64,000 nucleotides of DNA. Origin: Promethearchaeota archaeon. Lineage in GTDB: Archaea; Asgardarchaeota; Thorarchaeia; Thorarchaeales; Thorarchaeaceae. Shown one piece after another: positions 4,553 to 52,346 of the stretch (positions within the stretch are counted from its first letter, which is position 1; each line of letters begins with the position of its first letter). The DNA lies in NCBI GenBank assembly GCA_048939765.1, contig JBHLPF010000001.1, positions 61,729 to 125,728 on the forward strand, read 5' to 3'. The translations under genes and the position numbers were made by a program. The notes below the pieces were generated by a model, which was not told where the DNA came from, did not search any database, and saw only the letters and a list, made by a program, of their open reading frames with translations.

Positions 4553-5746
4553 TCAGGTGAGTAAGTCGAGTAGATGTTGTTCCAACATATCAGCTGGTAC
4601 TTCAGAGAGACCTATCAAGGTTGTCTGACCTCTCTGGCCAGCACCAGAACGTTTTGTGTCCAAAAGCCCATGCGCATTTAGATCCTGTACCCATTCCCAG
4701 ATTTGAGTGTGTGCCCTTGGATCTTCGCCGTACTCCTCGCATATTGGACGGTACATCTCTTCGAGCTCACCCATTGTGATATATGCGCCTCGATTCATCC
4801 TGAGCTGTCTTGCAGCTGCCAGAAGAAGAAGCATATTCTGTCGAGGGAGAGTTGCGAACACCTCCTTCCTCAACTCGGGATGTATGTCTGCCTTGGCCTT
4901 ACGGGCAAAATCAGGAATCACCTTTCGGGAGCCTGTACTATCAGCCTGCTTCCCTGCGCGCCACAGGAGTTCGATTGCATAACGGGCGTCCCCCCATTCT
5001 GAGGCAATGTCGCAGATAATCTGCAGTGTTTCATCCATAACTGCATCCTTCTCGAATGCCATGTCTACTCGCTCCCTTAGAATATCATATAGTGCATCAG
5101 CTGCATATTGGTCAAAACGAAGTATGTTTCTTTGAAGTGTGCTCAATGTGCTTTGATCCAAGATACTCTCATCAAGGGGTATCTTTCTCCCCACTCCGAT
5201 TACAGACAGACGCTGAGGAGCATTCAACCGGTCATCCATCAGCCTAGTCAAATCATAGAGAATGTCAGCGCCTCGTTGTCTAATGAAATAGTCGAGCTCA
5301 TCAAGTATCAGTAGAAGGTATCTGTCTTCTTCATCAAGTACTTCGACAACCATCTGAAGAATTTCTTCAGGTGAATGGCCTCGTCGAGGAAACCTTGGTT
5401 TAAACTCCCTCAATATCCGCAGATACACAAGATAGGTGCTCTTGCTCACTCTACAGTTTATGTGCAGTTTGTGCAGTTGAATGCCACGTCGCGTAGCGGC
5501 CTTAACCATTTGATCCGCAAAACGCTTAGTCACAGCTGTCTTTCCAGTGCCTACTGGGCCCTCGATAATGAACTTCTGACTCGCGCGACCGGGCGAAGCA
5601 ATCAGTGTCTTGAAACTCTGGGCCAGCTTCCTCAACTCAGGCTCTCTATGCGGGAGAGTTTCTGGAACATAGTCGATGGATAGCAATTGCTCCGACTTGA
5701 ATACACTCCGTCGACTCAGTTCGTCTTCTACATAGTCATGCGTCAT
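4553..5746 (-). CDS. cdc6: Orc1/Cdc6 replication initiator
   Basis: DYVPETLPHRE, GPVGTGKT, HINC, LILDELD, GDARYAI, C-terminal wHTH. Confidence 0.96.
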   Translation of the reverse strand: MTHDYVEDELSRRSVFKSEQLLSIDYVPETLPHREPELRKLAQSFKTLIASPGRASQKFIIEGPVGTGKTAVTKRFADQMVKAATRRGIQLHKLHINCRVSKSTYLVYLRILREFKPRFPRRGHSPEEILQMVVEVLDEEDRYLLLILDELDYFIRQRGADILYDLTRLMDDRLNAPQRLSVIGVGRKIPLDESILDQSTLSTLQRNILRFDQYAADALYDILRERVDMAFEKDAVMDETLQIICDIASEWGDARYAIELLWRAGKQADSTGSRKVIPDFARKAKADIHPELRKEVFATLPRQNMLLLLAAARQLRMNRGAYITMGELEEMYRPICEEYGEDPRAHTQIWEWVQDLNAHGLLDTKRSGAGQRGQTTLIGLSEVPADMLEQHLLDLLT

Positions 5747-5847
5747 GAGTCATCCCGGTCCGAAATAGAAACAAATCAGCAACTTAAAAGAGTTGTGTGA
5801 ATTGTTCGATTAAATGTATGCGAGGAGTGGGGCTAGCCGAAAGTAAT

Positions 5848-5926
5848 AGTGGCGAGCTCGTTACTCAAGATCCATATCATCGTCGCTCTGGACTCATTGG
5901 GGTCATGGCAGTCATCACTCGCCGCT
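5848..5926 (-). ncRNA. Candidate box C/D guide sRNA for Cm34 of intron-containing pre-tRNA-Met
   Basis: Minus strand reads AGCGGCGA-GUGAUGA(C)-CUGCCAUGACCCCA-AUGA(D')-GUCCAGAGCGAC-GAUGA(C')-UAUGGAUCUUGAGUA-ACGA(D)-GC-UCGCCACU, with a terminal stem; both spacers are complementary to the pre-tRNA-Met at 52173-52346; D and D' boxes are degenerate. Confidence 0.6.
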
Positions 5927-5968
5927 CACAACTTGGTCTACTTGTCCTTAAGTCTGACGAAAAGAATG

Positions 5969-6072
5969 TGCGGCCGCCGGGATTGTCTCAACACACAGCA
6001 GTCGTATGTTGATTCGAACCCGGGTTGGAGGCTTGGGAGGCCTCCGTCCTAACCAAGCTAGACTACGGCCGC
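5969..6072 (-). tRNA. tRNA-Gly(CCC) with 30-nt T-loop intron (~5983-6012)
   Basis: GCGGCCG acceptor, GAGGC-CT-CCC-AA-GCCTC anticodon arm; removing the 30-nt hairpin insert restores GGGTTCGAATCCC. Confidence 0.92.
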
Positions 6073-46504: not shown

Positions 46505-46614
46505 GGGCCGGTAGTCTAGCCCGGCTATGATGTCTCGCTTACACCGAGAAACTGGTTGAGCTTTATGCTCTCCAGATTCGAAGGTCGCTGGTTCAAATCC
46601 GGCCCGGCCCACCA
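46505..46614 (+). tRNA. tRNA-Val(TAC) with 32-nt intron at 44/45 (46551-46582), encoded CCA
   Basis: TCTCG-CT-TAC-AC-CGAGA; BHB central helix CGAG/TTCG, bulges AA|A and AA|G. Confidence 0.92.
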
Positions 46615-46728: not shown

Positions 46729-46816
46729 GCGGGAGTAGCCAAGCCCGGTCAAAGGCGGAGGACTTAAGATCCTCTCTCGTAGGAGTCCAGGGGTTCAAGT
46801 CCCCTCTCCCGCACCA
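46729..46816 (+). tRNA. tRNA-Leu(TAA), encoded CCA
   Basis: GCGGGAG acceptor, GAGGA-CT-TAA-GA-TCCTC, long variable arm. Confidence 0.95.
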
Positions 46817-52172: not shown

Positions 52173-52346
52173 GCCGCAGTGGCCTAGACTGGTAGGGCGC
52201 GAGACTCATAATCTTCCTGGAGTCATCCAGGTAAAGACTGGGGTCATGAGCATTGCGCCAAAGGCTCGAGATGAGAAATCTCGAAGTCGAGGTAGACTTC
52301 CTGCCTCGTCGAGAAGTCGAGGGATCGAAGCCCTCCTGCGGCACCA
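52173..52346 (+). tRNA. Elongator tRNA-Met(CAT) with two introns: 37/38 (52211-52277, 67 nt) and 45/46 (52286-52315, 30 nt)
   Basis: G1-C72 GCCGCAG/CTGCGGC; BHB1 CTCA/TGAG; BHB2 CTCG/CGAG with AA|G bulges and 8-bp inner stem; T-loop ATCGAAG. Confidence 0.9.

Follow-up and report, generated by a model that had tools for sequence, protein, structure and literature searches.

In a 64,000-nucleotide stretch of a thorarchaeal genome (Promethearchaeota archaeon, contig JBHLPF010000001.1, positions 61,729 to 125,728; hereafter the window, with coordinates below given as window positions unless another contig is named), we describe an unannotated gene for a box C/D small RNA (sRNA) with two guide arms. 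The arm upstream of box D (the D guide) is perfectly complementary to tRNA-Leu(CAA) across its wobble base. The other arm (the D' guide) is of the type that is usually an 'orphan', and here it has a partner: a short tag in the anticodon intron of the tRNA-Met precursor, with which it co-changes across several Asgard families. This conserved and covarying pairing suggests that the tRNA-Met intron has a job. We lean slightly towards a model in which the sRNA, made from its own promoter, would guide methylation of C34 in tRNA-Leu(CAA) and would also use the intron tag as a docking site, so that the same D guide could act on C34 of tRNA-Met; taken by itself, this docking-assisted methylation before splicing seems to us about evenly poised between true and false.

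Why archaeal and eukaryotic tRNA genes keep their introns is an old question, and the few known answers are modifications that require the intron. If the model is true, it would supply a concrete selective function for a tRNA intron and an archaeal forerunner of the accessory base-pairing of eukaryotic small nucleolar RNAs (snoRNAs), and it would mean that a C/D particle binds its substrate at two sites in Asgard archaea, the closest known relatives of eukaryotes.

A conserved box C/D sRNA gene in Thorarchaeota

The sRNA measures 73 nucleotides (nt) from stem to stem (5851..5923, minus strand), and alignments show it to be conserved in the family and in the phylum. In a DNA search of relatives, the element was 78-98% identical across 20 related loci (from the genus and the family) while the flanks drifted. 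A family-wide search then recovered it in 57 of 61 genomes of the Thorarchaeota family, including all 23 high-quality genomes and all 16 genera. With a covariance model (R1) built from 20 copies, sRNA homologues were found in 68 of 151 genomes sampled across the Asgard phylum, and a pattern scan of public genomes matched 71 records, nearly all of them Candidatus Thorarchaeota. As the original prediction had held, the element is absent from current annotation: no Rfam family reached its threshold, the best hits being two eukaryotic C/D families, SNORD33 (16 bits) and SNORD103 (14.8 bits), with E-values of 4-6 where thresholds are 44-45 bits. The genes for Nop5 (PF01798, 229 bits) and fibrillarin (PF01269, 284 bits) lie next to each other on contig C64 of the same genome.

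The terminal stem, the GUGAUGA motif and the C'/D' hairpin that had been noticed beforehand are all found in the minus-strand sequence. The 5' arm of the stem, GGCGAGU (5917..5923, minus strand), forms 7 base pairs (bp) with the 3' arm GCUCGCC (5851..5857, minus strand), and a 7-bp terminal stem recurs in 72 of 82 homologues. Across 18 distinct sequences the terminal stem and the internal hairpin were 96% paired, with compensatory changes, and no shuffle matched the covariation observed; for the terminal stem, 100% of cells were paired, and the changes went from G-C to A-U and among U.G, U-A and C-G.

GUGAUGA (5918-5912, minus strand) had been drawn as the C box. The motif is present; its kink-turn register, judged from the 82 homologues, is shifted by 3 nt. 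We dropped the register with bulge AGU, which leaves three surplus bases on the D strand, for a register that suits all homologues: bulge GAU (5916-5914), sheared GA (5913-5912) and then CUG (together 5909..5916, minus strand). Over the 82 homologues the C-strand bulge reads GAU in 62, AAU in 12, AGU in 4, UAU in 3 and CAU in 1, and GA always comes next; outside the family, several homologues lack a second GA on the C strand. The D box is ACGA (5858..5861, minus strand), of the form NNGA with an invariant GA, and reads CUGA in many relatives. It had been taken to be degenerate, a description that the homologues contradict, because its first base covaries with the C-box strand: in 73 of 82 homologues it forms a pair with the base that stands two nt beyond the GA of that strand (U-A 52, G-C 10, A-U 6, G.U 4, C-G 1). 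When this pair (4b-4n) was shuffled, the mean was 43 and none of 5000 shuffles reached 73 or more; kinship inflates this test, and the variety of five pair types is independent of kinship.

The internal motif is built like the terminal one, with a hairpin stem (3-4 bp), a bulge RAU, GA and U.U. Its C-stem is the C'/D' hairpin GUCC..GAC (5882..5893, minus strand), which shows compensatory changes among relatives (GUCC/GGAC, GUCA/UGAC, AUCC/GGAU). The D' box, AUGA (5894..5897, minus strand), is CUGA or UUGA in relatives and hence NUGA overall, and the C' box, (G)AUGAUAU (5874..5881, minus strand), would provide the bulge GAU, the sheared GA and UAU; its AUGAU is invariant, and its geometry is read from the sequence. 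The first base of D' pairs with C' position 6 as C-G in one relative (G017) and U-A in another (G024), and G017 also has a G-C pair beside U.U together with a canonical CUGA D' box. Between the hairpin and the 12-nt D spacer, the minus strand reads GAUGAUAU.

The D' guide CUGCCAUGACCCCA (5898..5911, minus strand) is a 14-nt spacer when counted from GUGAUGA; in the kink-turn register, the D' and D spacers are 11 and 12 nt long, in keeping with the guide length of about 12 nt in archaeal C/D sRNAs. UUGA inside the D guide was considered as a D box and ruled out, since the spacer would shrink to 6 nt and the strand would fall short of the stem. Folding of the single sequence gave an ordinary score (z -1.4), in line with the need of such an RNA to keep its guides open. 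No excision signal of the bulge-helix-bulge (BHB) type was seen around the sRNA, and its stem is free of bulges. The element therefore unites a terminal kink-turn, an internal C'/D' motif, two spacers, guide complementarity of at least 9 bp with an N+5 base (the base facing the fifth guide nucleotide upstream of the box) and Nop5 and fibrillarin genes in the same genome, which are the features of an archaeal C/D sRNA. On these comparative grounds we regard it as a genuine stand-alone box C/D sRNA of Thorarchaeota and as a family-wide RNA gene to be added to their genomes.

The D guide matches the wobble region of tRNA-Leu(CAA)

The D guide GGAUCUUGAGUA (5862..5873, minus strand) has a core, GAUCUUGAGU, that is invariant in about 85 homologues. 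We located its targets by pattern search and by eye, because ARAGORN misses or misnames most of the intron-bearing tRNAs in this genome. Against mature tRNA-Leu(CAA) the D guide forms a perfect duplex of 12 bp in 12, from A31 to A42, that places C34 at N+5; against the precursor, it forms 10 bp plus a G.U. The precursor gene reads GGACUCAAGAUC...AUCCAC and lies on contig C24:7426-7564 (locus L043:127-265) of the genome that carries the window (G000, family f1; other genomes, families and contigs are labelled likewise). One of its two introns follows the anticodon loop and the other separates the variable arm from the T stem; ARAGORN calls the gene tRNA-Ser. The 21 relatives recovered have retained the target stretch GAUC...AUCCAC, and the D guide is antisense to ACUCAAGAUCC, the stretch addressed by the sRNA sR47 of Pyrococcus abyssi, with C34 at N+5. 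We thus consider the role of this RNA as a predicted methylation guide for the wobble C34 of tRNA-Leu(CAA) to be well supported.

By the same pairing, tRNA-Leu(UAA) (46729..46816, plus strand) is a possible secondary substrate: the D guide can form 10 Watson-Crick pairs with it, plus a G.U at nt 34, and this tRNA has neither an intron nor a tag. Neither guide found a convincing site in the organism's own 16S or 23S rRNA, the best 16S match being UGGGGUUA with 8 bp including a G.U, and neither GGGGUCA nor CUCAAGA occurs in these two rRNAs. At a distance of 120 nt, tRNA-Leu(UAA) is preceded by another intron-bearing tRNA (46505-46611, plus strand; 49.8 bits with Rfam), and ARAGORN's assignment of this neighbour as Ser(ACU) is implausible.

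The D' guide covaries with a tag in the tRNA-Met intron

The second target lies in an intron-bearing tRNA-Met precursor of elongator type with anticodon CAU (52173..52343, plus strand; Rfam tRNA 36.4 bits, and family alignment). The initiator signature GGG/CCC is absent from this tRNA and present in another gene, on contig C64; nor does the tRNA resemble tRNA-Ile(GAU). As had been predicted, the D' spacer segment CAUGACCCCA (5907-5898, minus strand) is the exact complement of UGGGGUCAUG (52239-52248, plus strand) in the intron, with 10 contiguous Watson-Crick pairs. By our own arithmetic, the chance of an exact 10-mer match in one 171-nt precursor is about 8e-4, and among the 39 tRNA loci of the genome only tRNA-Met offers a 10-bp D' match. 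A tag in tRNA-Leu(CAA) was sought and rejected: its variable arm has only GGGGU plus one G.U, which is not conserved in relatives.

The tag, whose N+5 base would be G 52243, keeps its place both in the family and in other families. Within the family, the guide core UGACCCC is kept throughout, and among the 53 pre-tRNA-Met genes recovered every intron displayed carries GGGGUCA (GGGGUUA in G057); the remaining introns match the guide over at least 7 bp at the same place, and the surrounding intron drifts. A core this constant has no room for covariation within the family; guide position 8, however, shows compensation even at this range, as C-G in G003 and as U-A in G046 and G073.

Guide/intron covariation in related genomes, which had been put forward as a check, was found between families when 29 genomes were compared. 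Guide and tag change together, as CAUGACCCC/GGGGUCAUG, UCUGACCCC/GGGGUCAGA and UCUAGCCCUU/AAGGGCUAGA. The resulting duplexes have 10 pairs in G000 (the f1 pair given above), in G026 (f3; guide UCUGACCCCU, tag AGGGGUCAGA) and in G088 (f13; UCUGACCCCG with UGGGGUCAGA), and 11 pairs in G101 (f19; AUCUGACCCCA with UGGGGUCAGAU), G030 (f7; GGUCUGACCCC with GGGGUCAGACU), G029 (f6; AUCUGACCCUG with UAGGGUCGGAU) and G028 (f5; UCUAGCCCUUU with AAAGGGCUAGA). Between f5 and f19 guide and tag differ at three positions, all three of them compensated. Over the 29 genomes the duplex of a guide with its own intron averaged 9.1 bp, against 6.7 bp for cross-family pairs. These alignments indicate that the guide/tag pairing is kept by matching changes in most of the Asgard families compared, and selection on the D' arm to pair with the tRNA-Met intron appears well supported.

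The geometry of the two sites is likewise conserved. In 28 of the 29 genomes, the gap between D' duplex and D' box is 0-1 nt. Outside family f1 the tag starts 10-16 nt after A38; in f1 it starts 23-30 nt after A38, with a linker hairpin inserted, or 12 nt after it in G043, which is without the hairpin.

The precursor has further features of its own. Besides the 67-nt anticodon intron there is another insert, about 29 nt long, in the T-arm (~52284-52312), which in relatives is found at other positions of the T-arm or T-loop, or is missing. An intron element RAUGAG (52270-52285, plus strand) is complementary to the anticodon stretch CUCAU as the central helix of the splice motif, and it accompanies ACUCAUAAUC in 91 of the 151 Asgard genomes sampled. 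Two tagged CAU tRNA genes stand close together in some genomes (G092:C356:8426-8658 and G098:C169:7725-10119); these could be duplicates, or tRNA-Met and tRNA-Ile2 could both be tagged. From G122 and G107 no tRNA-Met gene was recovered.

Docking as a possible route to C34 of tRNA-Met

In the same precursor, the anticodon-loop stretch ACUCAUAAUCU (52204..52214, plus strand; C34 at 52207) faces the D guide. It had been predicted that the D spacer pairs with 9 of 11 positions across this anticodon, with the fifth nucleotide upstream of ACGA opposite C34, and so it does: GGAUCUUGAGU and ACUCAUAAUCU form 8 Watson-Crick pairs and one G.U, with mismatches at U36 and A37. The only precursor to contain the tag is the one in which the anticodon loop comes close to matching the D guide in this N+5 register, and the tag lies at a short, conserved spacing from the anticodon-loop site. 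Both sites turn their near ends towards the internal C'/D' motif, and a single particle could therefore hold the two together.

The model that we favour would run as follows. Transcribed from its own promoter, the sRNA would form a particle with L7Ae, Nop5 and fibrillarin at its two regular kink-turns, and its 12-nt D guide would direct 2'-O-methylation of the wobble C34 of tRNA-Leu(CAA). The D' guide would seek no mature RNA; it would form 8-11 bp with the conserved tag in the anticodon intron of pre-tRNA-Met and thereby hold this precursor on the particle. The same D guide could then also methylate C34 of tRNA-Met before splicing, in the N+5 register and despite the mismatches at U36 and A37. 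Methylation of this base by the sRNA would be possible only as such a docking-assisted reaction. We favour docking because of the location of the tag, the spacing of the two sites, the fact that we found no separate guide, the tRNA-Met guides known or predicted in haloarchaea and Pyrococcus, and the accessory pairing seen in yeast. When a separate guide for C34 of tRNA-Met was sought as an antisense to the anticodon loop, either exact or with one mismatch, the matches were at chance level and had no boxes.

Several observations weigh against this model. The two mismatches between D guide and tRNA-Met are adjacent, lie 2-3 nt from the target base and are the same in every genome examined; as both partners are invariant, covariation is silent on their duplex. 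About 10 family genomes have a mismatch at D' guide position 8, which leaves 7-8 bp, and in G115 (f21) the duplex of guide and own intron is down to 6 bp; for 10 of the 29 genomes, the intron of a foreign family pairs better with the guide than the genome's own. The N+5 base in the intron is G in every lineage, which leaves room for plain methylation of the intron. The identity of the CAU tRNA as Met rather than Ile2 is settled by exclusion only. In genus g39 of family f9 the tRNA-Met tag is present and no clean sRNA was found. Finally, expression of the RNA, its protein binding and every methylation event are things that we infer, docking for tRNA-Met C34 above all.

In that genus (G188:C1:440605-440684, minus strand; also G176 and G103), the intron tag of tRNA-Met reads UUGGGUCAGA, and UCUGACCCAA occurs together with GAUCUUGAGU in a single candidate RNA, an odd one whose boxes are poor. 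There the guide may have been remodelled or lost.

Some of the same observations are compatible with two unrelated jobs, in which the D guide would serve C34 of tRNA-Leu(CAA) only and the D' guide would act on the tRNA-Met intron for its own sake, either by 2'-O-methylation of G 52243, which might for instance stabilise or mark the excised intron, or as an RNA chaperone or timer, holding the long intron open and setting the order of splicing. The position of the D' duplex at the D' box, with G always at N+5, is that of a working guide; archaeal double guides have been proposed as folding chaperones (PMC7994747); and the mismatches between D guide and tRNA-Met improve in no lineage. What this explanation leaves unaccounted for is the presence of the tag in the one precursor with a near-matching anticodon loop in register, and its short conserved distance downstream of that loop. 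In addition, the aligned position of the intron's N+5 base shifts by two nt between f5 and the other families, which docking fits better than a site-specific mark would. We know of no use for methylating an intron that is discarded. We therefore rate the two-job explanation as rather unlikely, if still a serious competitor.

Extended beyond Thorarchaeota, the docking model would imply that the tRNA-Met anticodon intron persists across the Asgard phylum in part, at least, because it carries a docking tag for an otherwise 'orphan' arm, allowing a small ribonucleoprotein tuned to tRNA-Leu(CAA) to modify a near-cognate tRNA. We put this generalisation forward tentatively, with a confidence that falls a little below even.

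Transcription unit and neighbouring genes

The sRNA lies between tRNA-Gly(CCC) upstream (5969..6072, minus strand; identified from sequence and Rfam) and an orc1/cdc6 gene downstream (4553..5746, minus strand; Pfam Cdc6_lid, Cdc6_C and AAA_22). The tRNA-Gly gene, which ARAGORN misses and which scores 18.9 bits against the Rfam tRNA model, carries a T-loop insert of about 30 nt at a non-canonical intron position.

That the RNA sits just downstream of tRNA-Gly on the same strand had been noted before; we measured the gap at 45 nt, and the arrangement is kept in most relatives. Directly after tRNA-Gly there is a U-run, UUCUUUUC (5959..5966, minus strand), also kept in most relatives and likely to be the terminator of the tRNA-Gly transcript. 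Further into the gap, a TATA-like box, CUUAAGG (5946..5952, minus strand), is centred about 26 nt upstream of the stem; in the family alignments UUUAAG/CUUAAGG is the sole conserved block in the gap, and it is likely to be the sRNA's own promoter. The box is retained in G020, where tRNA-Gly and the sRNA are about 21 kb apart. The probable start of transcription lies 1-4 nt ahead of the stem, and its probable end within the U-rich tail.

These features bear on the reading given in the original prediction, namely a dedicated double guide for pre-tRNA-Met, comparable to sR-tMet or Pyrococcus sR49, that would be transcribed as a dicistron with tRNA-Gly and released by tRNA 3' processing. Pre-tRNA-Met is indeed contacted by both arms, the two genes are close neighbours in most relatives, and tRNA-sRNA dicistrons exist in archaea and plants (PMC7994747). 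Nevertheless, co-transcription with tRNA-Gly is unlikely because a U-run and a conserved TATA-like box separate the genes, the latter surviving in G020. As for the two guides, the D' pairing with pre-tRNA-Met has held up, being conserved and covarying, whereas the D guide is perfect for tRNA-Leu(CAA) and imperfect for tRNA-Met in every genome; its complementarity across the tRNA-Met anticodon loop is everywhere discontinuous, unlike that of an sR-tMet-type guide. As a whole, we find the dedicated, dicistronic double guide quite improbable.

On the other side of the stem, a U-rich tract follows in all families. In f1, this tail, ACUAUUACUUUCGG (5837..5850, minus strand), is probably a terminator because it is U-rich; beyond f1 there is no further conservation of the tail. 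Within the family the tail is nearly invariant, more so than a terminator needs, and it lies about 90 nt upstream of orc1/cdc6; it may combine a terminator with a control site for cdc6 or an origin.

Archaeal origins often sit upstream of orc1/cdc6. The position of the conserved block directly before this gene, together with the strict conservation of the tail, could accordingly be read as a DNA-level origin or promoter element, with no RNA gene at all. Such an element would not be expected to show compensatory changes in two stems and a kink-turn, which are RNA-level signals, nor guides with complementarity to tRNAs and covariation with an intron at a distance of about 46 kb. In other families, too, homologues were recovered through RNA-level features, and the tail motif is present in one copy only in the 64-kb window, which rules it out as a repeated origin box. 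We consider a purely DNA-level element very improbable.

Comparison with known systems

We found no description of this sRNA in a literature search that lacked most subscription journals. Its closest functional counterpart is P. abyssi sR47, which methylates C34 of tRNA-Leu(CAA) in vitro, the oligonucleotides used showing ACUCAAGAUCC (PMC3413156), and which is also named as the Cm34 (2'-O-methylated C34) guide of tRNA-Leu(CAA) elsewhere (PMC5558902). Both are stand-alone archaeal C/D sRNAs in which the guide upstream of box D is directed at this stretch, with C34 at N+5, and the predicted target stretch is identical. They come from different phyla, however, and the thorarchaeal RNA has an internal kink-turn with a hairpin stem rather than a K-loop, as well as a D box of the form NNGA with a covarying partner. 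The main contrast lies in the second guide: tRNA-directed sRNAs usually have one guide without a target (review PMC7994747), whereas the second guide of the thorarchaeal RNA has a conserved partner in a tRNA intron.

With regard to tRNA-Met, formation of Cm34 in the elongator tRNA of Haloferax is sRNA-guided on the intron-containing precursor (PMC4033218), and a guide for the tRNA-Met wobble base has been predicted in Pyrococcus (PMC7994747). The proposed reaction resembles the haloarchaeal one in that a C/D sRNA would act in trans on the intron-containing precursor of elongator tRNA-Met to yield Cm34, with the intron needed. The sR-tMet guide is itself complementary to the anticodon region of tRNA-Met, as Joardar et al. 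(2011) reportedly found. In Thorarchaeota, by contrast, the catalytic guide appears to be tuned to tRNA-Leu(CAA), and it is the other arm that would bind the intron, at a separate tag.

Euryarchaeal pre-tRNA-Trp provides a second parallel, as its intron encodes the C/D guide for Cm34 and Um39 (PMC4033218, PMC7994747). There, as proposed here for tRNA-Met, an intron is required for C/D-guided ribose methylation of the wobble base before splicing. In pre-tRNA-Trp, however, the intron is the guide, whereas here it would be a target-like tag for a guide encoded elsewhere.

Finally, two-site binding has a likeness in eukaryotic accessory guides (PMC3116282; PMC5389607), where a second complementary stretch near the modification site strengthens a weak duplex and stimulates methylation; in yeast snoRNAs, extra base-pairing boosts methylation up to five-fold (van Nues et al. 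2011, PMC3116282). Those accessory guides act on rRNA, usually through extra pairing right beside the guide, whereas the thorarchaeal sRNA would devote a whole second guide to this purpose, with its partner in a tRNA intron that is later removed.

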